DNA from: an uncultured Anaerolineales bacterium
GTDB taxonomy: Bacteria; Chloroflexota; Anaerolineae; UBA7937; B3-Chlor
Direction of reading: 5' to 3'
Length of the DNA: 38,216 nt
NCBI GenBank assembly: GCA_964351925.1
Contig: CAYGQI010000001.1
Coordinates: forward strand, 30,505-68,720
Below are positions 7,079 through 30,692 of the stretch, one piece after another (the stretch's first letter is position 1; each line of letters opens with the position of its first letter). Below the pieces are notes generated by a model. The model did not search any database. It saw only the letters and a program-made list of their open reading frames with translations, and had not been told where the DNA came from. Made by a program: the position numbers and the translations under genes.

Positions 7079-8101
7079 ATGAGAAAAGCAGATAAGGTGG
7101 CTCTTGTCGGATGGTGGCAAGAGACCCGAGAACTGGTACCATGGGACGACCCCAGTTTTGAAATCTGGGGGCTGAATGAAGCCTATGCTCGGCCATGGAT
7201 GAAGCGCTGGGACCGCTGGTTCCAGGTTCACGGTCGGTGGAACTTCAGCCGCCTGAACAATCCGAACGACCCCAATCACTTCGAATGGCTCAAAGCACAG
7301 AAGGCTGTGGCCGATGGCGGCTTCCCCATCTACATGCAGAGGGAGTGGACCGACATTCCGGCCAGTACCCGTTTCCCTCTGGAGGACATCACTCAAGCCT
7401 ACCTGGCTCCATACATCAAGCGCCTTCGCTTCCCCGGCACCGAAAAGGAGCTTGAGGAGGACACGAAGGGCTACTACACCAGCTCTGTAGCGCTCATGGT
7501 AGCGTTTGCTCTTCACGAAGGCTTCAAGGAGATTCACTTCTACGGCTTCACGATGGGGAGCGACACAGAGTACAAGTACCAACGGATCAATGGAGAGTTC
7601 TGGATCGGCCTGTGCGCTGGGCGAGGTGTCAAGATCGTACTGCCTGACCCCTGCACTCTCCTGACTTCATCAGGCTTGTATGGATACGAGGTGACTGAGA
7701 TGCTAGGACGACAGGACCTTGAGTTTCGAATGACGGACCTGAAGAGACTGGTTGACCAAAAGACGGCCATGGTCAACACGCTCCACGGAGCCATCCAGGG
7801 ATTGGGCAAGGTCGTGAACATCCATCCCGAGTTGGCAGAGACCGTGAAGCCCGAGATGGAGAAGTTCGAGCAGCAGGTCAAGGCCGCGGAGAACGAGCTG
7901 TACTCTGTCAAGGGAGCAGAGCTTGAGGTCATGAACTGGCTCAAGACGATCGATCTGCAACCAACCCATCCTGACTTCGGAAAGTATGTCATGGGAACCG
8001 AAGCCGAAGCAATCCGGGCACGTGAGGGTGAAGCGCTCCGAGAGTTCGGGAGAGAGTTTGCGGAACCCGCCATAGCCCGCAGTGATGGGCCAGATGCCTA
8101 A
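7079..8101 (+). CDS. CstII/DUF115-like glycosyltransferase-fold protein with a C-terminal coiled coil (tentative)
   Basis: YYTSSVALMVAFALHEGFKEIHFYGFTMG resembles the TSG..M...A.ALGYKEIYL.G.D motif of GT42/DUF115 enzymes. The N-terminal V.L.G....P.DD.FE.W..N.AY is analogous to IAGNGPS...FRCNQFY, but the GNGPS loop is not conserved. Confidence 0.4.
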   Translation: MRKADKVALVGWWQETRELVPWDDPSFEIWGLNEAYARPWMKRWDRWFQVHGRWNFSRLNNPNDPNHFEWLKAQKAVADGGFPIYMQREWTDIPASTRFPLEDITQAYLAPYIKRLRFPGTEKELEEDTKGYYTSSVALMVAFALHEGFKEIHFYGFTMGSDTEYKYQRINGEFWIGLCAGRGVKIVLPDPCTLLTSSGLYGYEVTEMLGRQDLEFRMTDLKRLVDQKTAMVNTLHGAIQGLGKVVNIHPELAETVKPEMEKFEQQVKAAENELYSVKGAELEVMNWLKTIDLQPTHPDFGKYVMGTEAEAIRAREGEALREFGREFAEPAIARSDGPDA

Positions 8102-8486
8102 AGCGACGGCAGACTGGTGGAAAAGGGAACCACCAGATGGAGACGAGCAGAGGCCCGCTGGGGCGCTCTACTGCCTCTTCTGCAAGCGCTACATCTCGCC
8201 TTTGCACCTAGAACGCCACAATGAGCAGCATGCTACTGTAGCGGAAGGATGGGAGGAACGGAATGGGAAAGCACAAGAACAGAAGGGGAAACCCCAATTC
8301 AGACCTGGGACCCAATCGGGACTTGAGTCGGGAGCAGGAGATTCTCCACAGCCAAAGGCATCTGGACCCCCAGATAGCCCGCCTGCTGGAGATGATCCCG
8401 AGCGCAACGGAGAGCCAGAAGCTGGAAATCTCGCTGATGCTTCAGAAGATAGCGAGGGGTCCGGCGTCGTTGCTGGAACGGCCTGA
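8082..8486 (+). CDS. Hypothetical ORF with a CxxC...HxxxxH zinc-finger-like motif; coding status of the 3' half is doubtful
   Basis: CLFCKRYISPLHLERHNEQH near the N-terminus. The last 224 nt overlap 8263-9060 out of frame, and that part translates to low-complexity sequence. Confidence 0.25.
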   Translation: MMGQMPKATADWWKREPPDGDEQRPAGALYCLFCKRYISPLHLERHNEQHATVAEGWEERNGKAQEQKGKPQFRPGTQSGLESGAGDSPQPKASGPPDSPPAGDDPERNGEPEAGNLADASEDSEGSGVVAGTA

Positions 8487-9060
8487 CGGTGGTCAACGCA
8501 TAGCCCAGCTGCGGCACAAGGCAGCTCAGGTTGATGCGACCACGGAGAAGTTCGAGAAGGACAGGGAAACCTTCATCGAGACGACTATCGAAGAGGCCGA
8601 ACGCAAGCTCAAGAAGACGGGGGCTGAGGCCGACAAGATCAAGGCCAAGGTCGCTACTGAACTACAGCACATGATCCAAGATGCTCGAGCTCGTCGTGGC
8701 TCGGACAAGATCAACATGGATCGCCTGCTGTCTACCATGCCAAAGAGGAAGATCGTCGTGACTGGATCGGTGGAGATGATCCGCCGTGGGGAGAACATCA
8801 TCCCTGAGATTCAGCCCGAGGTCATCCGCATCAAGCACCGCACGTTCGTCTTCCCGCCTGGGGAGTGGGAAGTCCCAGAGCTGGTAGCTCAGGTGCATGA
8901 TGAGAGACTACGTAAGGCCGAGGAGCAGCGCAAGCGAGAGAATGTGCTTCAGGCTGTTGGCGAGGCCGGACGTGATACCGAAGTGTTCAAGCAGTGGGAC
9001 AAGATCAATGAGGAGTACGGCTCACAGACCGATCGTGTTCCATCTTACGGAGTCTACTAG
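8263..9060 (+). CDS. Hypothetical protein, charged and coiled-coil rich
   Basis: GGGAGGA RBS 5 nt upstream of the ATG. 265 aa of protein-like sequence. Confidence 0.6.
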   Translation: MGKHKNRRGNPNSDLGPNRDLSREQEILHSQRHLDPQIARLLEMIPSATESQKLEISLMLQKIARGPASLLERPDGGQRIAQLRHKAAQVDATTEKFEKDRETFIETTIEEAERKLKKTGAEADKIKAKVATELQHMIQDARARRGSDKINMDRLLSTMPKRKIVVTGSVEMIRRGENIIPEIQPEVIRIKHRTFVFPPGEWEVPELVAQVHDERLRKAEEQRKRENVLQAVGEAGRDTEVFKQWDKINEEYGSQTDRVPSYGVY

Positions 9061-9102
9061 ACACGGTGAGCCCCCACCACAGAGCGGGCAACCGGAGACA
9101 CA

Positions 9103-9522
9103 ATGGGAGATCACTACTATCAATCAGACACAGCGGCTGCTGACAGTGACAAGTCCTTCACTGTCCCAGAATCCAGCATGTGGCACGTCGATGCTGTCAC
9201 TGTCAAGCTTACAGGATCAGTCACAGTGGGCAACCGCAGACCATGTGTTGAGTTCAAGGACACGCCCGGCAACGTCGTTGCCTTCGCTACCGCAGGAGCC
9301 ACGACAGCCGCCACTGAGGTACGCTACTACACCTTCTGGCCCGGAGCGCCTAACCTGACCTCCTTCATTGGAGGCGCTACCGCCGATCATCTGAGCACAC
9401 CACTTCCAGAGATGTTGCTGAGGAAGGGATGGACCGTGCGTGTCTACGACATTGCTGCCATCGCCGCTGACTCAGACGCCATGGAAGTGTTCCTGAACTA
9501 CACTCAAGAAAGAACCATGTAG
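9103..9522 (+). CDS. Hypothetical small virion protein
   Basis: 139-aa ORF in the late operon. FTVPESSMWHVDAVTVKLT weakly echoes the 6083/6553 paralog motif. Confidence 0.55.
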   Translation: MGDHYYQSDTAAADSDKSFTVPESSMWHVDAVTVKLTGSVTVGNRRPCVEFKDTPGNVVAFATAGATTAATEVRYYTFWPGAPNLTSFIGGATADHLSTPLPEMLLRKGWTVRVYDIAAIAADSDAMEVFLNYTQERTM

Positions 9523-24389: not shown

Positions 24390-25141
24390 TCCAAGGACAA
24401 GACTACTCACACTACAACGCCAAGGTGAACTTCCCGCTGGCCATCAAGAATGGTCAGAAGGTCTTCTACCTCAAGTCGTCCGAGGGCAACAACTGGAGCG
24501 ACGACACCTACGAGGAGAAGCGCCTGGCCTGCATCCCTACCAAGGCTCCCTTCGCTCCCTACCACTTCATGAAGATGGCCTACACGGCTGTCAGTCAGGC
24601 GGCATGGTTCAAGAAGTGTGCTCCAGACCCAACACCTCTTCCACCGATCGCAGACATCGAGCAGCACCCGGCTGAGCCGGACAACCTGCTCATCCCTATG
24701 GCCAAGAAGCGCTCACATGTACAAACGCTTCTCCTAGAGACCGAGAGGCTGTTTGGTCGCAGGCCCATTATCTACACTGGGGTCTACTGGTGGAAGGACA
24801 ACATCGGGGACGTGTCTTGGGCGAAGGACTACAAGTTCATCATCGCTGGCTACCTGTTCTTCAAGCAAGCCATCCCTGCCAACTTCAACATCTGGTGGCC
24901 AGGACCCCGCACCCTGTTCTACATCCCACGCGAGAACGTGATTGGATGGCAGTGGGCGGGCGACATCCCGAACATCAGCAATACCACATACCCCTGGTCT
25001 ACTGGAGCTCAAGACTTCAACGTGTTTGACGAAGTTCAGATCGCTGCTCTCGTGAGCGGCAGTACAGAGACGCCTCCGCTGACTGAGGCCGAGAAGCTTG
25101 ATCTCGTGTACAAGTGGTATCTCGAATCTCACGGAGGCTAA
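24386..25141 (+). CDS. Endolysin, glycoside hydrolase family 25 (muramidase)
   Basis: GQDYSHY (D-x-S-H-W/Y box), SSEGNNWSDDTY, APYHF, PPIADIEQ: the usual GH25 motif order. Confidence 0.75.
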   Translation: MIQGQDYSHYNAKVNFPLAIKNGQKVFYLKSSEGNNWSDDTYEEKRLACIPTKAPFAPYHFMKMAYTAVSQAAWFKKCAPDPTPLPPIADIEQHPAEPDNLLIPMAKKRSHVQTLLLETERLFGRRPIIYTGVYWWKDNIGDVSWAKDYKFIIAGYLFFKQAIPANFNIWWPGPRTLFYIPRENVIGWQWAGDIPNISNTTYPWSTGAQDFNVFDEVQIAALVSGSTETPPLTEAEKLDLVYKWYLESHGG

Positions 25142-25142
25142 C

Positions 25143-25520
25143 ATGGCACCCAAGAAGCGCGTGTCCCAAATCAACGCTGAATGTCAGGCACTCATGATCT
25201 CCATCCCGCCGCTGCTGGTCGATCTGAAAGAAGGACAAACGGAGTTGGGGAAGAAAATCCAGAATGTTGATGAGGCCATTCGGGGCAACGGCAAGGAGGG
25301 CCTTGTCGCCAGGGTGACGCGTTTGGAAACTGCGAACACTCTTGATCGCCAACAAACTGTGGAGGCGAAGGAACTGGCTCTCGATCTGGTCAAGAACCCC
25401 CCAAAACCGCCTAGCCCAACCCAGTGGTGGTACGCGCCCATCTTCGGTATCGGAGCGTCTATCCTGATCTGGTTCTTCACACAGGAACTTCCCAAGATTA
25501 TCGCCCATATTGGTCCATAA
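25143..25520 (+). CDS. Tail-anchored membrane protein, probably lysis-associated
   Basis: GGAGG RBS. 125 aa. Coiled-coil N-terminus and one C-terminal TM segment (WWYAPIFGIGASILIWFF). Lies immediately after the endolysin. Confidence 0.5.
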   Translation: MAPKKRVSQINAECQALMISIPPLLVDLKEGQTELGKKIQNVDEAIRGNGKEGLVARVTRLETANTLDRQQTVEAKELALDLVKNPPKPPSPTQWWYAPIFGIGASILIWFFTQELPKIIAHIGP

Positions 25521-25534
25521 TCCAAAGGGGGGAC

Positions 25535-25563
25535 TTGACAAACCTCAAAAAGAGGTGTATTCT
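25535..25563 (+). promoter_or_regulatory. Sigma70-like promoter for the tRNA array
   Basis: TTGACA (25535-25540), 17-nt spacer, TATTCT (25558-25563). The first tRNA starts at 25573. Confidence 0.55.
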
Positions 25564-25572
25564 TAGACAGTC

Positions 25573-25645
25573 CGAGGAATGGTGTAGACCGGGAGCACGC
25601 TAGCCCTGGGAGCTAGTGGCGGTGGTTCAAACCCACCTTCTTCGA
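25573..25645 (+). tRNA. tRNA-Pro(TGG)
   Basis: Acceptor CGAGGAA/TTCTTCG. D GTGT/GCAC. AC stem CTAGC/GCTAG, loop CCTGGGA (C33). T arm GGTGG-TTCAAAC-CCACC. Confidence 0.75.
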
Positions 25646-25647
25646 CC

Positions 25648-25720
25648 TGCGGGTTAAGTTGGAGTGGAACCACGGTGGCCTCATAAGCCGCGTAGACGAG
25701 TTCAATTCTCGTACCCGCTA
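25648..25720 (+). tRNA. tRNA-Met(CAT) type (Met, fMet or Ile2 not resolved)
   Basis: AC stem GTGGC/GCCGC, loop CTCATAA. T arm ACGAG-TTCAATT-CTCGT. Acceptor GCGGGT/ACCCGC with an unpaired 1:72 or an irregular acceptor-D junction. Confidence 0.6.
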
Positions 25721-25727
25721 CCTTCAT

Positions 25728-25799
25728 ACCAGAGTGGCGCAACGGTAGCGCAAGCCGCTGTTAACGGCGAGGTTGCAGGTCCGAATCCTGCCTTTGGTG
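25728..25799 (+). tRNA. tRNA-Asn(GTT)
   Basis: Acceptor ACCAGAG/CTTTGGT. D GCGC/GCGC. Loop CTGTTAA. T arm GCAGG-TCCGAAT-CCTGC. CCA encoded. Confidence 0.85.
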
Positions 25800-25847
25800 C
25801 CAAGAAGTCGAGTACCGCTTACCTTTACAACTGATCGGCAATAACAG

Positions 25848-25920
25848 GCCAGTGAAGCACAATCGGCAGTGCGGTCGCCCTGTAAGCGACAGGCAGTGGG
25901 TTCGACTCCCACCTCTGGCT
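25848..25920 (+). tRNA. tRNA-Thr(TGT)
   Basis: Acceptor GCCAGTG/CTCTGGC (one mismatch). D GCAC/GTGC. AC GTCGC/GCGAC, loop CCTGTAA (C33). T arm GTGGG-TTCGACT-CCCAC. Confidence 0.8.
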
Positions 25921-25988
25921 CCTGAGAGTTCTGCACATCAGCGTTGAAATCTGGCTGTTCTCACGGCGCGCTAAAGAGACAGCAACAC

Positions 25989-26060
25989 GCAGGCATGGGG
26001 TAAAGGATAGCCCAGCACCCTCCTAAGGTGCGTGTGAGCGTTCGAGTCGCTCTGCTTGCT
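25989..26060 (+). tRNA. tRNA-Arg(CCT)
   Basis: Acceptor GCAGGCA/TGCTTGC. AC GCACC/GGTGC, loop CTCCTAA. T arm GAGCG-TTCGAGT-CGCTC. Confidence 0.85.
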
Positions 26061-26064
26061 CCTT

Positions 26065-26136
26065 GCTTCTGTAGATAACGGACAGTCGCTCCGGCTTCTA
26101 ACCGGATGAGTGCAGGTTCGAATCCTGCCAGAAGCT
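26065..26136 (+). tRNA. tRNA-Arg(TCT)
   Basis: Acceptor GCTTCTG/CAGAAGC. AC TCCGG/CCGGA, loop CTTCTAA. T arm GCAGG-TTCGAAT-CCTGC. Weak D stem. Confidence 0.75.
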
Positions 26137-26202
26137 CCTGCCGGGGGTCTCTCTTTGAGAGCACGGCGTCCGAAATTCCCTCTGCCCCCGAGGGTCGGCT
26201 AC

Positions 26203-26273
26203 GCATCTGTAGGCTAATGGATGACCGTTGGGCCACGGACCCAAAGGTGAGCGTTCAAGTCGCTCCAGATGCT
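26203..26273 (+). tRNA. tRNA-Arg(ACG)
   Basis: Acceptor GCATCTG/CAGATGC. AC TTGGG/CCCAA, loop CCACGGA (C33). T arm GAGCG-TTCAAGT-CGCTC. Confidence 0.75.
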
Positions 26274-26317
26274 CCTGTGGAAATTGACAGAGTCACCACT
26301 CAAAGAACTGTCCACAC

Positions 26318-26389
26318 AGACTGTTCGTCTAGCGGCCAGGATAAGCGTCTCCAAAACGTTTGACGGGGGTTCGAGTCCCTCACGGTCTG
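26318..26389 (+). tRNA. tRNA-Trp(CCA)
   Basis: Acceptor AGACTGT/ACGGTCT. D GTCT/GGAT. AC AGCGT/ACGTT, loop CTCCAAA. T arm GGGGG-TTCGAGT-CCCTC. Confidence 0.8.
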
Positions 26390-26395
26390 CCTCGT

Positions 26396-26468
26396 TAGGT
26401 GGTGGTGTAACCGGCAAGCACAGTAGGCTGTGGACCTGCGGGAGAGGGTTCAAGGCCCTCCCATCTGA
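26396..26468 (+). tRNA. tRNA-His(GTG)
   Basis: Acceptor TAGGTGG/CCATCTG. D GTGT/GCAC. AC GTAGG/CCTGC, loop CTGTGGA. T arm GAGGG-TTCAAGG-CCCTC. The -1 position is T opposite A73, not G-1:C73. Confidence 0.8.
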
Positions 26469-26502
26469 CCTAGCAAGAATAGTCACTTAAAGTGACTACA
26501 AT

Positions 26503-26573
26503 GGTTCTGTGGCGTAACGGCAGCGCAACTCCCTGTCGAGGAGTAGGCGAGGGATCGACACCCTTCAGGACCG
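26503..26573 (+). tRNA. tRNA-Asp(GTC)
   Basis: Acceptor GGTTCTG/CAGGACC. D GCGT/GCGC. AC ACTCC/GGAGT, loop CTGTCGA. T arm GAGGG-ATCGACA-CCCTT (A54). Confidence 0.8.
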
Positions 26574-26578
26574 CCTTT

Positions 26579-26650
26579 GGGCGCGTGATGTCAACGGGAG
26601 CATGCTGCACCTGCAATGCAGCCGTGGGAGTTCAAATCTCCCCGTGTCCA
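26579..26650 (+). tRNA. tRNA-Ala(TGC)
   Basis: Acceptor GGGCGCG/CGTGTCC with the G3:U70 alanine identity pair. AC CTGCA/TGCAG, loop CCTGCAA (C33). T arm GGGAG-TTCAAAT-CTCCC. Confidence 0.85.
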
Positions 26651-26657
26651 CCTTCAT

Positions 26658-26728
26658 TCAAGAGTCGGCTAACGGTAGGCCGTAGGGCCTTGGACCCTAC
26701 TGTGGAGGTCCGAATCCTTCCTCTTGAA
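26658..26728 (+). tRNA. tRNA-Gln(TTG)
   Basis: Acceptor TCAAGAG/CTCTTGA (U1:A72). D GGCT/GGCC. AC TAGGG/CCCTA, loop CCTTGGA (C33). T arm GGAGG-TCCGAAT-CCTTC. Confidence 0.8.
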
Positions 26729-26733
26729 CCTAC

Positions 26734-26818
26734 GGAGTGGTGGCAGAGCGGCTGAATGCGCTTCCCCGCTAAGGAAGTTGGGGTAACTCCCACGTTGGTT
26801 CGAATCCAACCCTCTCCG
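26734..26818 (+). tRNA. tRNA-Ser(GCT)
   Basis: Acceptor GGAGTGG/CCTCTCC (one mismatch). AC CTTCC/GGAAG, loop CCGCTAA (C33). Long variable arm TTGGGGTAACTCCCAC. T arm GTTGG-TTCGAAT-CCAAC. Confidence 0.8.
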
Positions 26819-26824
26819 CCTCGT

Positions 26825-26894
26825 GGATGTATGGTGTAACGGTGCACGCATGACTGTAGATCATCAGGGCGTGGTTCGACTCCACGTGCATCCA
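26825..26894 (+). tRNA. tRNA-Tyr(GTA), short variable arm
   Basis: Acceptor GGATGTA/TGCATCC. D GTGT/GCAC. Loop CTGTAGA. 4-nt variable region. T arm CGTGG-TTCGACT-CCACG. A73. Confidence 0.75.
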
Positions 26895-26901
26895 CCTTCG
26901 A

Positions 26902-26972
26902 TCTCTCCTAGTGCAACGGTAGCACGCTTGGCTCTGAACCAAGTAATCTACGTCCGAATCGTGGGGAGAGAA
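26902..26972 (+). tRNA. tRNA-Gln(CTG)
   Basis: Acceptor TCTCTCC/GGAGAGA (U1:A72). D GTGC/GCAC. AC CTTGG/CCAAG, loop CTCTGAA. T arm CTACG-TCCGAAT-CGTGG. Confidence 0.85.
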
Positions 26973-26977
26973 CCTAT

Positions 26978-27050
26978 GCCGCTGAAGCTAACCCAGTGGA
27001 AGCGTCTGCCTGAAGAGCAGAAGGGGTCGGCGCGACACCGACTGGCGGCA
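26978..27050 (+). tRNA. tRNA-Phe(GAA)
   Basis: Acceptor GCCGCTG/TGGCGGC. AC TCTGC/GCAGA, loop CTGAAGA. T arm GTCGG-CGCGACA-CCGAC (non-canonical T-loop). Confidence 0.75.
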
Positions 27051-27056
27051 CCTTAC

Positions 27057-27143
27057 GGAAGAGCTAACATCGGTGTGTGCAGCCGTCTTGAAAACGGTAG
27101 TCCGGTGAAACCCGGATTGGGAGTTCAACTCTCTCCTCTTCCG
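27057..27143 (+). tRNA. tRNA-Ser(TGA)
   Basis: Acceptor GGAAGAG/CTCTTCC. AC GCCGT/ACGGT, loop CTTGAAA. Long variable arm with a CCGG/CCGG stem. T arm GGGAG-TTCAACT-CTCTC. Irregular D arm. Confidence 0.75.
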
Positions 27144-27148
27144 CCTCT

Positions 27149-27219
27149 GGCTTCTAGTCCGAACGGCTAGGAAGTCGCCTGCAAAGCGACCGTAGAGAGT
27201 TCGACTCTCTCAGAAGCCT
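27149..27219 (+). tRNA. tRNA-Cys(GCA)
   Basis: Acceptor GGCTTCT/AGAAGCC. AC GTCGC/GCGAC, loop CTGCAAA. T arm GAGAG-TTCGACT-CTCTC. Discriminator U73. Confidence 0.85.
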
Positions 27220-27225
27220 CCTCGT

Positions 27226-27300
27226 GCGCCCATAGGAGAATCGGCATATCCGCTGGTCTTAGAAACCAGGTCAATGGTGGTTCGAATCCACCTGGGCGTA
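27226..27300 (+). tRNA. tRNA-Leu(TAG), short variable arm
   Basis: Acceptor GCGCCCA/TGGGCGT. AC CTGGT/ACCAG, loop CTTAGAA. 6-nt variable region. T arm GGTGG-TTCGAAT-CCACC. A73. CCA encoded. Confidence 0.75.
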
Positions 27301-27381
27301 CCAAAAGGCCCTCGGAAGTACAACGGGTGGTCGGCACAACAGTGCCTTCTGGCTTGGGGACGCCAAAAACAATCCCCACCA

Positions 27382-27456
27382 GCATCCTGGCCGGTAAGGT
27401 GATCGGAGACTGTCTTATAAACAGTCCACAATCTGGTCCGATGCCAGAAGGATGCA
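27382..27456 (+). tRNA. tRNA-Ile(TAT)
   Basis: Acceptor GCATCCT/AGGATGC. D CCGG/TCGG. AC GACTG(T)/(A)CAGTC, loop CTTATAA. T arm TCTGG-TCCGATG-CCAGA. Confidence 0.7.
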
Positions 27457-27461
27457 CCTAT

Positions 27462-27532
27462 GGTCTCATCCGCTAAAGGGAGGCGAGCGGCCCCTCAAGC
27501 CGCAAATGCGATTTCGAGATTCGCTGAGACCA
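27462..27532 (+). tRNA. tRNA-Glu(CTC)
   Basis: Acceptor GGTCTCA/TGAGACC. D CGCT/GGCG. AC GCGGC/GCCGC, loop CCCTCAA (C33). T arm GCGAT-TTCGAGA-TTCGC with a U.U at the loop-closing pair. Confidence 0.7.
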
Positions 27533-27537
27533 CCTAC

Positions 27538-27610
27538 GTCACCATCGTCTAACGGTTCAGGATGGGACCCTTTCAAGGTCTGGATCGGAGTTCGAATCTC
27601 CGTGGTGATA
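27538..27610 (+). tRNA. tRNA-Glu(TTC)
   Basis: Acceptor GTCACCA/TGGTGAT. AC GGACC/GGTCT, loop CTTTCAA. T arm CGGAG-TTCGAAT-CTCCG. Confidence 0.8.
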
Positions 27611-27615
27611 CCTGC

Positions 27616-27687
27616 GCATTCGTAGCTGAGCGGTAAAGCAGTTCGTTGCCAACGAACAGATCGTGGGTCCAAATCCCACCGAATGCT
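27616..27687 (+). tRNA. tRNA-Gly(GCC)
   Basis: Acceptor GCATTCG/CGAATGC. AC GTTCG/CGAAC, loop TTGCCAA. T arm GTGGG-TCCAAAT-CCCAC. Confidence 0.85.
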
Positions 27688-27693
27688 CCTCGT

Positions 27694-27767
27694 GCCTGTG
27701 TAGCTCAATTGGTCAGAGCGCTTCTCCTACAAAGAAGAGGCTGGTGGTTCGAGCCCACCCAGAGGCA
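27694..27767 (+). tRNA. tRNA-Val(TAC)
   Basis: Acceptor GCCTGTG/CAGAGGC (one mismatch). D GCTC/GAGC. AC CTTCT/AGAAG, loop CCTACAA (C33). T arm GGTGG-TTCGAGC-CCACC. Confidence 0.8.
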
Positions 27768-27771
27768 CCTT

Positions 27772-27846
27772 GCTCTCATAGCCCAACATGGCAGAGGCGG
27801 CAGCTTCAAAACCTGTCCAGTGCTAGTTCGAATCTAGCTGGGAGCA
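27772..27846 (+). tRNA. tRNA-Leu(CAA), short variable arm (anticodon-arm register uncertain)
   Basis: Acceptor GCTCTCA/TGGGAGC. AC GCAGC/CCTGT (C31.C39 mismatch), loop TTCAAAA. An alternative fold gives a 9-nt loop. T arm GCTAG-TTCGAAT-CTAGC. A73. Confidence 0.6.
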
Positions 27847-28027
27847 CCTGCGGCTGAGACTCGGTGAAACGCCGAGGGAAGGGAGAACAAACCGGAAAGT
27901 AGACGGTCTCCTGTGCGTAAGTGGGAAACTCGACCCAGAGTAGCGAGGGTGTCCAGCGGTGAATGGGTATTGCCAGCGCAAGCCCCTACTGGGCGGTGAC
28001 ACCGAAACCCACCTTGAGGCCGCACAT
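27847..28027 (+). ncRNA. Unclassified structured RNA embedded in the tRNA array (not a tRNA)
   Basis: 181 nt between two complete tRNAs with no plausible + strand ORF. Terminal helix TGCGGC (27849-54)/GCCGCA (28019-24). Internal hairpins: CTCGG-TGAAACG-CCGAG (27860-76), GGAGA..CCG-GAAAGTAGA-CGG..TCTCC (27882-911), GGTGTC (27948-53)/GACACC (27998-28003) enclosing TTGC-CAGC-GCAA (27970-81). Confidence 0.5.
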
Positions 28028-28100
28028 GCTCTGCGAGCCAGTCGGTCGAAGGCACTCGTCTGATACACGAGTTTGCGTGGTTCAACTCCACGGCGGAGCA
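28028..28100 (+). tRNA. tRNA-Ile(GAT)
   Basis: Acceptor GCTCTGC/GCGGAGC. AC CTCGT/ACGAG, loop CTGATAC. T arm CGTGG-TTCAACT-CCACG. Confidence 0.8.
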
Positions 28101-28139
28101 CCTGTTTCAGTTGTTTAGCAATATTGCTAAACATCTCAT

Positions 28140-28211
28140 ACCAGCATAGCTCAGATGGAGAGCAAGCGGCCTTTACCCGCGAGGTCGGGGACCCGAGCCC
28201 CCCTGCTGGTA
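28140..28211 (+). tRNA. tRNA-Lys(TTT)
   Basis: Acceptor ACCAGCA/TGCTGGT. D GCTC/GAGC. AC (A)GCGG/CCGC(G), loop CCTTTAC (C33). Aberrant T arm GGGGA-CCCGAGC-CCCCC. Confidence 0.65.
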
Positions 28212-28218
28212 CCTAAAT

Positions 28219-28291
28219 GCTTCTGTGGCGCAATCGGCAGCGCAACCGGCCCTTAACCGGAAGGCTGGAGGATCATACCCTCCCAGGAGCA
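28219..28291 (+). tRNA. tRNA-Lys(CTT)
   Basis: Acceptor GCTTCTG/CAGGAGC. D GCGC/GCGC. AC (A)CCGG/CCGG(A), loop CCCTTAA (C33). T arm GGAGG-ATCATAC-CCTCC (A54). Confidence 0.75.
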
Positions 28292-28296
28292 CCTGT

Positions 28297-28369
28297 GCTT
28301 CGGTAGTTGAGTAGGCAAAACACCCCTTTCGTAAAGGGGAGGACAGAGGTTCGAAGCCTCTCCGAAGCT
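28297..28369 (+). tRNA. tRNA-Thr(CGT)
   Basis: Acceptor GCTTCGG/CCGAAGC. AC CCCCT/AGGGG, loop TTCGTAA. T arm AGAGG-TTCGAAG-CCTCT. Confidence 0.85.
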
Positions 28370-28455
28370 CCTTGGGTAAGGCTCCTAGCCGACACGGCAT
28401 CAGGCGCGGGGCTGACCGATGGGACATAACCGTGGATCACCCCATCTCCCAACAT

Positions 28456-28528
28456 GCCACTGTAGCTCAGCCGGTAGAGCGCCGACTCGGTAAGTCGGAG
28501 GCCGACGGATCATCACCGTCCTGTGGCT
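28456..28528 (+). tRNA. tRNA-Thr(GGT)
   Basis: Acceptor GCCACTG/CTGTGGC (one mismatch). D GCTC/GAGC. AC CCGAC/GTCGG, loop TCGGTAA (C33). T arm GACGG-ATCATCA-CCGTC (A54). Confidence 0.8.
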
Positions 28529-28533
28529 CCTAT

Positions 28534-28604
28534 GCGGGCTTGGTATATGGGTTGTGCCTCAGCCTTCCAAGCTGATGAAGCGAGTCCGAATCTCGCAGCC
28601 CGCT
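28534..28604 (+). tRNA. tRNA-Gly(TCC)
   Basis: Acceptor GCGGGCT/AGCCCGC. AC TCAGC/GCTGA, loop CTTCCAA. T arm GCGAG-TCCGAAT-CTCGC. CCA encoded. Confidence 0.85.
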
Positions 28605-28615
28605 CCAAGAAAGAG

Positions 28616-28650
28616 AAGACCCCAGGTTGTTTGCCTGGGGTCTTTTCGTT
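28616..28650. terminator. Bidirectional intrinsic terminator between the convergent tRNA array and the - strand operon
   Basis: AAGACCCCAGG-TTGTTTG-CCTGGGGTCTT: 11-bp perfect stem. TTTCGTTT follows on the + strand and a T-rich CTCTTTCTT follows on the - strand. Confidence 0.8.
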
Positions 28651-29415
28651 TCAGATCGACTTGCGTGTCCACTTGCTGTATGGCTCCAACTTCTGGAACA
28701 GGTTTTGGAGTATCTCGACGTCCTTCTTGTTGTGCTCCACGATGAAGCCCAGAGCAGTCTTATCTCCATACCCCGCCTCCATCCACAGTTCGATGTCAAC
28801 GTTGTCCTTCTCTCCGGTCTTGCCCTGCAAGCGCAAGAAGCGAGACACGGCTCCGAGATTGCGCCTGTGTAGTCTCAAGTTGGAGCGGGCGCGGTAGAAG
28901 AGATCGAAGTGGTAGATGGAACCATACTCTGGAAAGGGCAGGTCCCAGAACAGCGCACGGCTCCGCATGTATGGTATGTCGAAGCCGGTCCCATAGAAGG
29001 TGGCCACAATATGCACGTCCTGTATGGCCTCCAGCAGTTCGGTAACGATTCGCTTGTCTCGTAGCTTGGGGTCGGTACATTCTTTCGGCGTGATGATCCC
29101 ATGACGGGGCCTCTTCTCATCCTCAACCTTCATGAACCACGACAACATGAAGCCGTGATTGGCGGCTAGGTCGGTGGTCTCGATGTCAAGGAAGCCGATC
29201 TTCATGCCCTGCTTGCGGAACCAGGGGATAGCCCTCACCGGCACTTCCACGTCAGGGTCATTCTCGTGACGCATATCGTTCAGCCGGTTGGCTACCGATC
29301 GTTCAGTGCGGTCCATCCTGACCGCCATAGTCCTCTGGCTCAGGCCCTTCTTGAAGAGCCGCTTCAGTTCTCGTTCCTCCGCCTTCGTCCACTTCTTCGG
29401 CTTGTAGTCATCCAT
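28651..29415 (-). CDS. DEDDh (DnaQ/RNase H-like) 3'-5' exonuclease with an N-terminal Myb/HTH-like segment
   Basis: ExoI FLDIETTD, ExoII FYGTGFDIPY, ExoIII HNKKD. N-terminal WTKAEERELKRLFKKGLSQRTMAVRM. Confidence 0.7.
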   Translation of the reverse strand: MDDYKPKKWTKAEERELKRLFKKGLSQRTMAVRMDRTERSVANRLNDMRHENDPDVEVPVRAIPWFRKQGMKIGFLDIETTDLAANHGFMLSWFMKVEDEKRPRHGIITPKECTDPKLRDKRIVTELLEAIQDVHIVATFYGTGFDIPYMRSRALFWDLPFPEYGSIYHFDLFYRARSNLRLHRRNLGAVSRFLRLQGKTGEKDNVDIELWMEAGYGDKTALGFIVEHNKKDVEILQNLFQKLEPYSKWTRKSI

Positions 29416-29833: not shown

Positions 29834-30692
29834 ATTCAGCCTCCTGTGCCTGTTCGGCAACTACTTCTATTGTAGCAGGTTTCGGTCTCGCAATCAACGT
29901 GATATCGGACGTGAGGTGAGGCAGATAGGGGTCCATCGTGACTCCAACCCATATCACCTCGAAGCCCGCACGCTCCGCGAGGAACTTCAGCGTCTCTGGC
30001 AAGAATGCCCCTACATGTGGCAATCCAAGAACTCTCGACGGACGACCAGTCAGATGTGGGATGTCGATGACCAAGTAACCTGTACTCTTCAGTCTGCTCT
30101 TAAGTGAGAGCAAGTAGTCGTAGGGCTCCACGATGTGCTCAAGGACATGCAGCGAGCTTACCACGTCCCACATGTCATCAGCGGCATCACCGAGGCTTGG
30201 GCGCACTTCTAGGCGCTTGTCCAAGCACATCTTGCGTGTATTGTCGTTGGGCTCAATGCCAATGGCATGGGCTCCCTCCCCATACTGCTTCCAGACATGC
30301 TCAAGTAGCTCACCTGACCCACATCCCACATCGAGCCACCAGAAGATGTTGGGCAGCTCCATCCCCGCCTCTTTGGCATACCTCAGCACACGCTCGGCTC
30401 TCTGTCTCTCGAGGATGATGTCCATTGGACGCAGGCCCTCACGCATGCCATTGTTGGTCACGGTGCGGTACTCCTTCTCATAGAAACGCTTCATGCTTTC
30501 CTCGTCCAGCGTGCTCCCCTGAAAGACCATGCCGCAGTCGGGACAGGCGATGTAGAAGATCATGATGTAGGGCTTGACGCGGCCCTCCATGGATGAGCCA
30601 TACACCACGAAGGCCCCATCCGACTTGCCGCAGGCCGGGCAGTGTGTGCGCTTCTCCCAACTCCACTTGAGTGTCTGCTCACCCTCTGTCAT
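29826..30692 (-). CDS. Class I SAM-dependent methyltransferase with an N-terminal zinc ribbon
   Basis: Motif I WWLDVGCGSGE. HVLEH block. N-terminal CPACG...(x24)...CPDCG. Confidence 0.7.
   Translation of the reverse strand: MTEGEQTLKWSWEKRTHCPACGKSDGAFVVYGSSMEGRVKPYIMIFYIACPDCGMVFQGSTLDEESMKRFYEKEYRTVTNNGMREGLRPMDIILERQRAERVLRYAKEAGMELPNIFWWLDVGCGSGELLEHVWKQYGEGAHAIGIEPNDNTRKMCLDKRLEVRPSLGDAADDMWDVVSSLHVLEHIVEPYDYLLSLKSRLKSTGYLVIDIPHLTGRPSRVLGLPHVGAFLPETLKFLAERAGFEVIWVGVTMDPYLPHLTSDITLIARPKPATIEVVAEQAQEAEYV

Follow-up and report, generated by a model that had tools for sequence, protein, structure and literature searches.

The window analysed here, a stretch of 38,216 nucleotides (nt), is the right-hand 38 kb of C1, the largest contig (68.7 kb, 57% G+C) of a bin of 2.2 Mb and 387 contigs. 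It carries an array of 31 transfer RNA (tRNA) genes on the forward strand (25573–28607) that covers all 20 amino acids, and eleven of these tRNAs do not have TTC at positions 54–56. To our knowledge, U54 and U55 are kept by every cellular tRNA, and T54-pseudouridine55-C56 is treated as universal in elongator tRNAs. A third of this complete phage tRNA set is without the motif, yet the fold shows every sign of purifying selection. Judged from their sequences, the variants look like working phage tRNAs that would be expressed and function in translation. On the other contigs of the bin, 32/32 tRNAs have TTC at positions 54–56 (11/30 versus 0/32 non-TTC, Fisher p = 1e-4) and 32/32 have U33. This test and those below were run on 30 tRNAs, before the 31st gene, Glu(CTC), had been found; with its canonical loop the count is 11/31.

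Gene calls came from several sources. ARAGORN reported 28 tRNAs (25573–28607, + strand), and Rfam added Phe(GAA) at 26978–27050 and Lys(TTT) at 28140–28211. The 31st gene, Glu(CTC) (27462–27534, + strand), escaped ARAGORN and, at the thresholds used, Rfam as well; it was found through a BLAST match to the sister array L289, to whose Glu(CTC) it is homologous. Its cloverleaf lies at most 0.1 kcal/mol from the minimum-energy fold, the sole difference being a T53.T61 mismatch that is unpaired in the latter, and it has C33 next to the canonical T-loop TTCGAGA.

All eleven T-loop strings quoted in a first-pass annotation of this DNA (six with TCC, three with A54, and those of Phe and Lys(TTT)) were present exactly as quoted, each on the + strand. 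Seven tRNAs have C55 and keep G18: Asn(GTT) (25728–25802, T-loop TCCGAAT at 25780–25786, G18G19 kept), Gln(TTG) (26658–26730, TCCGAAT at 26709–26715, also C33), Gln(CTG) (26902–26974, TCCGAAT at 26953–26959), Ile(TAT) (27382–27458, TCCGATG at 27437–27443, with G60 and 21 Watson-Crick pairs), Gly(GCC) (27616–27689, TCCAAAT at 27668–27674, with 68.3 bits the top Rfam score in the array), Lys(TTT) (28140–28213, CCCGAGC at 28192–28198, with C54, an A53.C61 mismatch and C33; 43.2 bits in Rfam) and Gly(TCC) (28534–28607, TCCGAAT at 28585–28591). A54 is accompanied by U58, a swapped pair, in Lys(CTT) (28219–28293, ATCATAC at 28272–28278, C33) and Thr(GGT) (28456–28530, ATCATCA at 28509–28515, A60, C33), and by A58 and A60 in Asp(GTC) (26503–26575, ATCGACA at 26554–26560, 57.1 bits). 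Phe(GAA) (26978–27052, CGCGACA at 27031–27037; called by Rfam only, at 40.8 bits, and folded by hand) has C54 and G55. Its D-loop ACCCAGTGG aligns to AGACAGTTA of the L289 Phe, which gives A18-G19 (CAGT); the L289 Phe has the T-loop TGCGATA and the same CAGT D-loop.

None of the eleven variants has T54-U55-C56, with 54 and/or 55 replaced in each, and all eleven keep a 7-nt loop and C56. The closing pair G53-C61 is retained in ten, the exception being Lys(TTT) with A53.C61. Counted over 30 tRNAs, position 54 is T in 25, A in three and C in two, position 55 is T in 22, C in seven and G in one, position 58 is A in 28 and T in two, and position 60 is a purine in six (7/31 with Glu(CTC) included). 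By the same count, R57, C61 and a GG in the D-loop are present in 30/30 and G53 in 29/30, and C56 is found in 31/31. The elbow between D-loop and T-loop, expected to suffer from such changes, is therefore altered in part: positions 54, 55, 58 and 60 move, but C56 is fixed and the G19-C56 corner is untouched.

To see which letters go together, about 780 tRNAs of viral and metagenome loci were combined. The pairs at 54/58 were T-A in 690, A-T in eight, A-A in two, C-A in six and G-G in two tRNAs, with no T-T; U58 occurred solely alongside A54 (8/8). GG was present in the D-loop of 80/80 tRNAs with C55 and 669/686 with U55, versus 1/19 with G55, where 18/19 had AG, and A was never seen at position 55. 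The window follows these rules: G18-G19 is present in all C55 and A54 tRNAs, and Phe has A18-G19 with G55 as a covarying alternative. The Phe loop had been described as further off than most. The string is real, but it belongs to this matched A18/G55 class. The changes are matched alternatives to the tertiary partners, not a loss of the elbow.

We then asked how the variant genes compare with their canonical neighbours. Ten of the eleven score 40.8–68.3 bits against the Rfam tRNA family RF00005, above the gathering score of 29, the other, Ile(TAT), being called by ARAGORN only. In the covariance-model comparison that the first-pass annotation had proposed, variants reached a higher mean than canonical tRNAs (56.4 versus 50.5 bits), and its remark that the stems remain good was borne out by 20.7 versus 20.8 pairs on average, with fewer G-U pairs in the variants. 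It had also named alternative folds that restore canonical T-loops as a possible objection. No alternative register gives TTC, and the Rfam covariance alignment placed the variant letters in the T-loop with high posterior probability in the five tRNAs checked (Lys(TTT), Lys(CTT), Thr(CGT), Thr(GGT) and Gly(TCC)), so alternative folds do not rescue TTC. We therefore consider it highly improbable that these genes are pseudogenes in decay or tRNA look-alikes that do not decode. Such a view could point to Ile(TAT), missed by Rfam at the thresholds used, to Phe and Lys(TTT), missed by ARAGORN, and to the A53.C61 mismatch in Lys(TTT), but the cloverleaf of the variants is complete, their anticodons are sensible and sit in loops of 7 nt, their mean scores are higher, and their stems are maintained by compensatory change, as the sister array illustrates.

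L289 is a 4.8-kb metagenome contig found by a scan with the Asn T arm. It consists of an array of 25 tRNAs that is homologous to that of the window, with individual tRNAs up to 93% identical and with the gene blocks Arg CCT-TCT-ACG, Glu TTC-Gly GCC, Val TAC-Leu CAA-Ile GAT and Thr CGT-Thr GGT-Gly TCC in common. Among 357 acceptor, anticodon and T-stem pairs compared between the two arrays, 213 were identical and 123 had changed on both sides with pairing kept; 13 showed one-sided changes with pairing kept and eight were unpaired in one member. These 123 compensatory changes argue for functional tRNAs and not for pseudogenes. For the loops, 22 same-anticodon pairs were taken as counterparts, the most divergent of which may not be true orthologues; they differ at position 55 in nine cases, at 54 in four, at 56 in none and at the unconstrained position 59 in 13. 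This pattern of substitution indicates that the cloverleaf is under purifying selection in both arrays and that positions 54/55 are free, or pushed, to change.

Non-TTC loops are found in 11/25 tRNAs of L289, in a subset that is partly the same as in the window. Variant in both arrays are Asn, Gln(TTG) and Gly(GCC), with identical TCC arms (the L289 Gln(TTG) loop is TCCGAAT too), Phe, with G55 in both, and Thr(GGT), with different variants (TCCAAGT in L289). Gln(CTG) and Gly(TCC) are variant in the window only (TTCGAAC and TTCGAGT in L289), and Ile(GAT), Val, Tyr, Ala, Arg(ACG) and Arg(TCT) in L289 only. The first-pass annotation had called the array systematically re-engineered away from consensus. 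Its changes are indeed concentrated and non-random, but the wording overstates the case: a different, overlapping subset is variant in L289, and position 55 flips in 9/22 pairs. The variant T-loop state is evolutionarily labile.

Single genes illustrate both persistence and turnover. Asn has counterparts with an identical T arm in L289, L293/L133 and L111, the stem changes being compensatory; Gly(GCC) and its L289 counterpart have identical T arms and seven compensatory stem changes; and C55 is also found in Ile(TAT) of the arrays L120, L128, L293 and L268. The two copies of Gly(TCC) are 92% identical and differ by U55/C55 and one compensated stem pair. A distant copy in L295 has TTCGAAT, and since both L295 and L289 have U55, C55 is derived in the window lineage. 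Intra-array duplication as the origin of the shared C55 was considered and rejected, since their T stems are all different. So was a link to Asn/Gln transamidation, because C55 is found in many other isoacceptors.

A comparison with orthologous tRNAs of related phages had also been suggested, and here the outcome was mixed: the closest relatives by family-A DNA polymerase (PolA) have no array, but the homologous metagenome array L289 shows the turnover at 54/55 described above. IMG/VR searches with the flanking exonuclease and PolA gave no useful relatives, an exact 48-nt Asn search of IMG/VR gave nothing, and among GenBank phages we obtained short single-tRNA matches only. Near-identical copies of this phage from other samples (L007–L009, 99.9%) are without variation in the array.

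How unusual is the array among viral tRNAs? As background, IMG/VR was scanned with a canonical Gln/Asn-type pattern and the other tRNAs of the 80 loci returned were counted; viral samples were thus picked by sequence patterns, with the selecting tRNAs left out of the counts. Against this background, where 26/441 tRNAs (5.9%) are non-TTC, the window has 11/30 (p = 3e-6), and for TCC alone the numbers are 6/30 versus 3/441 (p = 3e-6). The cultured phages matched by BLAST are nearly canonical, with 1/20 variant tRNAs in Klebsiella phage FZ41 and 0/5 in Streptomyces phage TunaTartare. In 400 other Chloroflexota genomes, the TCC pattern gave two matches, one of them a tRNA, and the canonical pattern gave 11 matches in 45 Chloroflexota genomes. 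In IMG/VR, 40 contigs matched the TCC pattern, 28 of the matches lying within tRNAs. When loci were chosen by one TCC tRNA, 25% of their other tRNAs were non-TTC, and TCC was found in 24/167 versus 3/441 in the canonical-selected set (p = 1e-11, TCC). The pattern is thus not unique to the window phage: a minority of other uncultured phage arrays is alike. Variant-rich arrays are L120 (11/19), L289 (11/25), L121 (6/16), L122 (10/29), L109 (9/36) and L208 (6/11). In L208 (IMGVR_UViG_3300031997_000001, 235 kb), G55 is found in 5/11 tRNAs (T-loops TGCAACT and similar), each on a T stem of its own; all five have AG for GG in the D-loop, and three have C33. One tRNA of the variant-rich viral array L120 (4415–4488, 74 nt) has the anticodon TCA and a C55 T-loop and is a possible UGA suppressor. 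Never variant in the pooled set were Trp, Ala, Thr(TGT), Leu(TAG/CAA) and Arg(ACG), all of which are canonical in the window too.

The distribution among arrays also bears on what drives the change. Per array, the fraction of 54/55 variants was uncorrelated with deviations at 8, 14, 53, 56 and 61 or with stem mismatches, and correlated only with non-Y60 (rho 0.47) and non-U33 (rho 0.45). This absence of correlation with other deviations or mismatches points to an array-level, site-specific property and not to general decay. One explanation would be a relaxed constraint at these sites, by which U54, U55 and Y60 drift among structurally allowed letters in an old phage-resident array, with no benefit. 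Its premise is that cells keep U54/U55/Y60 mainly for long-term stability, modification and quality control, none of which a short-lived phage pool would need. Between the window and L289, the turnover at position 55 nearly matches that at the free position 59 (9/22 versus 13/22), the variant subsets of the sister arrays overlap weakly, position 60 is loosened too, only a third of the genes are changed with U still commonest at 55, and the phage tRNAs are about 60% identical to host-bin isoacceptors, as expected from a long independent history. But the contrast among arrays is sharp: TTC is retained in most phage arrays, and among those with eight or more tRNAs half have zero variants. Richness in variants is accompanied by no excess of other deviations or of stem mismatches, and A is never found at 55. 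Moreover, the five independent U-to-G transversions in L208, together with A18, are not expected from transition-biased drift, and the C55 T arms of Asn and Gly(GCC) have stayed identical between arrays while the other stems diverged. On balance, such drift is a serious possibility, nearly as likely as escape from nucleases, to which we turn below.

Non-U33 anticodon loops, with which the variants correlate across arrays, are found in the window as well, as the first-pass annotation had noted. C33 replaces U33 in eleven tRNAs between 25573 and 28530: Pro, Thr(TGT), Arg(ACG), Ala, Gln(TTG), Ser(GCT), Glu(CTC), Val(TAC), Lys(TTT), Lys(CTT) and Thr(GGT), with Ser(GCT) having C33 in L289 as well. 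Both changes coincide in both Lys tRNAs, Gln(TTG) and Thr(GGT), and in single tRNAs there was no association between T-loop variant and C33 (odds ratio 1.05). ARAGORN sidesteps C33 by a register shift, and all non-U33 counts are hence underestimates. For instance, the program's 'tRNA-Cys(ACA)' (27694–27769, + strand) is actually Val(TAC) with C32-C33, the register having been moved to hold T33; its counterparts in L289 and Streptomyces phage TunaTartare are Val(TAC) too, and each is followed by Leu(CAA), as in the window.

We propose that in the variant tRNAs U54 and U55 were swapped for substitutions that the structure tolerates. The T-loop framework would be retained through G53-C61, C56-G19, the purine at 57 and a 54-58 pair, with G18-C55 or A18-G55 in place of G18-pseudouridine 55 and with A54-U58 or A54-A58 in place of T54-A58. 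A tRNA of this kind should still reach the L shape and decode. Methylation at U54 and pseudouridylation at 55 would no longer be possible, and the variants are without the U54-U55 dinucleotide needed by T-loop-directed nucleases. CbCash, a CRISPR-associated Schlafen nuclease of a Chloroflexi bacterium, cuts 5' of U55, and single mutations of U54 or U55 abolish cleavage (PMC13462974); CdiA-CT E479 cuts the same bond, between T and pseudouridine (PMC9086364). The tRNAs described here are phage-borne, and 11/31 differ at U54/U55 versus 0/32 in the bin, the recognition sites being taken from PMC13462974 and not from this host. We tentatively suggest that the driver was escape from host factors that read U54-U55, for example T-loop endonucleases like CbCash, and would give this a little under an even chance. 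The C33 changes in the same array fit such a logic of escape, in parallel to the anticodon-loop escape mutations of phage tRNAs. More tentative still is the possibility that the replacement of U54/U55 by matched elbow pairs (G18-C55, A18-G55, A54-U58) is a recurrent phage strategy that hides a spare tRNA pool from T-loop-reading nucleases (Cash-type Schlafens).

Several points weigh against nuclease escape. Since only 11/31 tRNAs are changed, 20 would remain open to destruction by a broad T-loop nuclease; the near-neutral rate of change at position 55 also agrees with relaxed constraint; and the variant subset is not the same in the two arrays (five common, two window only, six L289 only, p = 0.36). 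At the corresponding junction, the closest PolA relatives (57% and 56% identity; L004–L006) are without a tRNA array, which shows that such phages can dispense with one, and the identity of about 60% to host isoacceptors indicates that the array is old. Between C1 and the other bin contigs we found no spacer-length or spacer-like k-mer matches, and RtcB and the CCA-adding enzyme are encoded on host contigs only, none by the phage. Neither a T-loop nuclease nor Cas10 was found in the bin, which is 83% complete. Its sole Schlafen-domain open reading frame is split and shows marginal similarity (E about 0.02) to eukaryotic Schlafens of the PDB, with no prokaryotic Schlafen among the PDB sequence matches. 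This locus, on the minus strand of G000:C354 (L010; 45–956 and 1018–1443), consists of a 141-amino-acid Schlafen/AlbA_2-domain frame followed by one of 303 amino acids, and appears to be a single gene interrupted by a frameshift or by misassembly.

Two further explanations start from the same positions. In the first, the array avoids or is independent of host T-loop modification, having letters that need no m5U54, pseudouridine 55 or m1A58 (TrmA/TrmFO, TruB, TrmI). Positions 54, 55 and 58 are exactly the modified ones (PMC7912444), U55C abolishes the formation of pseudouridine 55 and serves as a negative control for it, and TruB is encoded in the host bin. However, 20/31 tRNAs keep U54-U55. 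Both truB and trmA are dispensable in laboratory bacteria, which would make the benefit small, and there is no sign of a limiting modification capacity. We regard this explanation as unlikely. In the second, the phage would destroy host tRNAs with a U54-U55-dependent nuclease of its own, to which part of its own set is immune. The array spans all 20 amino acids and could replace the host pool, but such a nuclease would also cut the larger part of the phage set itself, and no RNase candidate is found in the annotated replication module. The phage PD-(D/E)XK gene is placed downstream of the RecA-type recombinase gene, two small genes away, within the replication and recombination block, as is typical of recombination exonucleases. 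Such a shut-off is very improbable.

The setting of the array is that of a phage. C1 encodes minor tail proteins, PolA, a RecA/UvsX-like recombinase, UDG, a PD-(D/E)XK nuclease, a methyltransferase and an RNase-H-fold exonuclease; its structural half is annotated only in part. The remaining bin is Chloroflexota, nearest to Anaerolineales (RpoB, 68% identity), and the phage-host assignment is by binning alone. C1 contains two runs of exactly 100 N (24470–24569 and 30405–30504), the second directly preceding the window, and is either a scaffold or a contig from which stretches were withheld.

A promoter-like site, TTGACA-17-TATTCT (25535–25563, + strand), lies 10 nt 5' of the first tRNA and is the sole such site in 25300–28800. 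At the other end, an 11-bp GC-rich hairpin (28616–28644, called on the minus strand) is located between the array and the convergent exonuclease gene, with TTTTCGTTTC right after it on the + strand; it is a probable two-way terminator. A single promoter probably drives the whole array as one operon. Nearly all of its genes end in N73-CC followed by T instead of CCA, and those of L289 likewise in CC without A, whereas the more distant arrays L293, L122 and L128 encode the full CCA. In addition, Tyr (26825–26896), Leu(TAG) (27226–27303) and Leu(CAA) (27772–27848), all on the + strand, are short (72–78 nt) and without a long variable arm; their L289 counterparts (421–504, 508–594 and 147–233) are 84–87 nt long. 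The long variable arm of these tRNAs seems to have been lost recently in the window lineage, and TunaTartare also has a 75-nt Leu(CAA) and Leu(GAG). Ser(TGA) (27057–27145, + strand) was not reported as RF00005 and scored 42.8 bits against the tRNA-Sec model (cut-off 47); it is 82% identical to its L289 counterpart. Finally, L004, the relative with 57% PolA identity, has a lone tRNA-His (7310–7381) beside an RtcB RNA ligase gene (8184–9326), in what we take as a different route for coping with tRNA damage.

In the open literature searched, we found no description of phage tRNA T-loops without U54/U55, nor of A18/G55 or G18/C55 elbows. New here are the A54-U58 swap, the sister-array turnover at 54/55 with compensated stems, the array-level statistics and the explicit link to T-loop nucleases. 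With the L-arrays (Santamaria-Gomez et al. 2021, PMC8421152) and the tRNA islands of large phages, the window array shares about 30 tRNAs for 20 amino acids in an operon-like block that is mobile and patchy. In contrast, T-loop deviations are not mentioned in PMC8421152, and the cultured controls are almost canonical.

A second resemblance is to the eukaryotic initiator tRNA, whose T-loop has A54, A58 and A60 (reviewed in PMC7912444). The window Asp (ATCGACA) has all three, and the exact initiator loop ATCGAAA occurs in the phage arrays L155 and L201. However, Asp belongs to a bacterial virus and its anticodon GTC is that of an elongator, not CAU, and Lys(CTT) and Thr(GGT) depart from an initiator-type loop by U58, the swapped pair not being known from initiators.

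As to the targets of CbCash and CdiA-CT E479, the enzymes cut between U54 and U55, which is exactly where the window variants are altered, and the bin is Chloroflexota as well. The link is circumstantial: the bin yielded no homologue of Cash, Cas10 or CdiA, and 20/31 tRNAs keep UUC. Phage tRNAs were left as an open question in the 2026 CbCash paper (PMC13462974). The variants are natural 'mutants' for two questions, the need for U54/U55 and the escape of phage tRNAs from T-loop-cutting immune nucleases, and the near-identical pair of Gly(UCC) tRNAs, with C55 in the window and U55 in L289, is a ready-made test substrate.

The closest parallel in logic is provided by phage tRNAs that escape host anticodon nucleases through substitutions in the anticodon loop (van den Berg et al. 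2023, eLife, PMC10264068; Azam et al. 2024, PMC11555353). In both cases, a phage-borne set has conserved loop nucleotides substituted relative to the host, and C33 is found in eleven tRNAs here. Unlike in those systems, the window changes lie in the T-loop (54, 55, 58 and 60), which is not treated in PMC10264068, and resistance is putative. If nuclease escape holds true, the array would represent the T-loop counterpart of anticodon-loop escape, and the 'universal' T-pseudouridine-C would be dispensable for translation.

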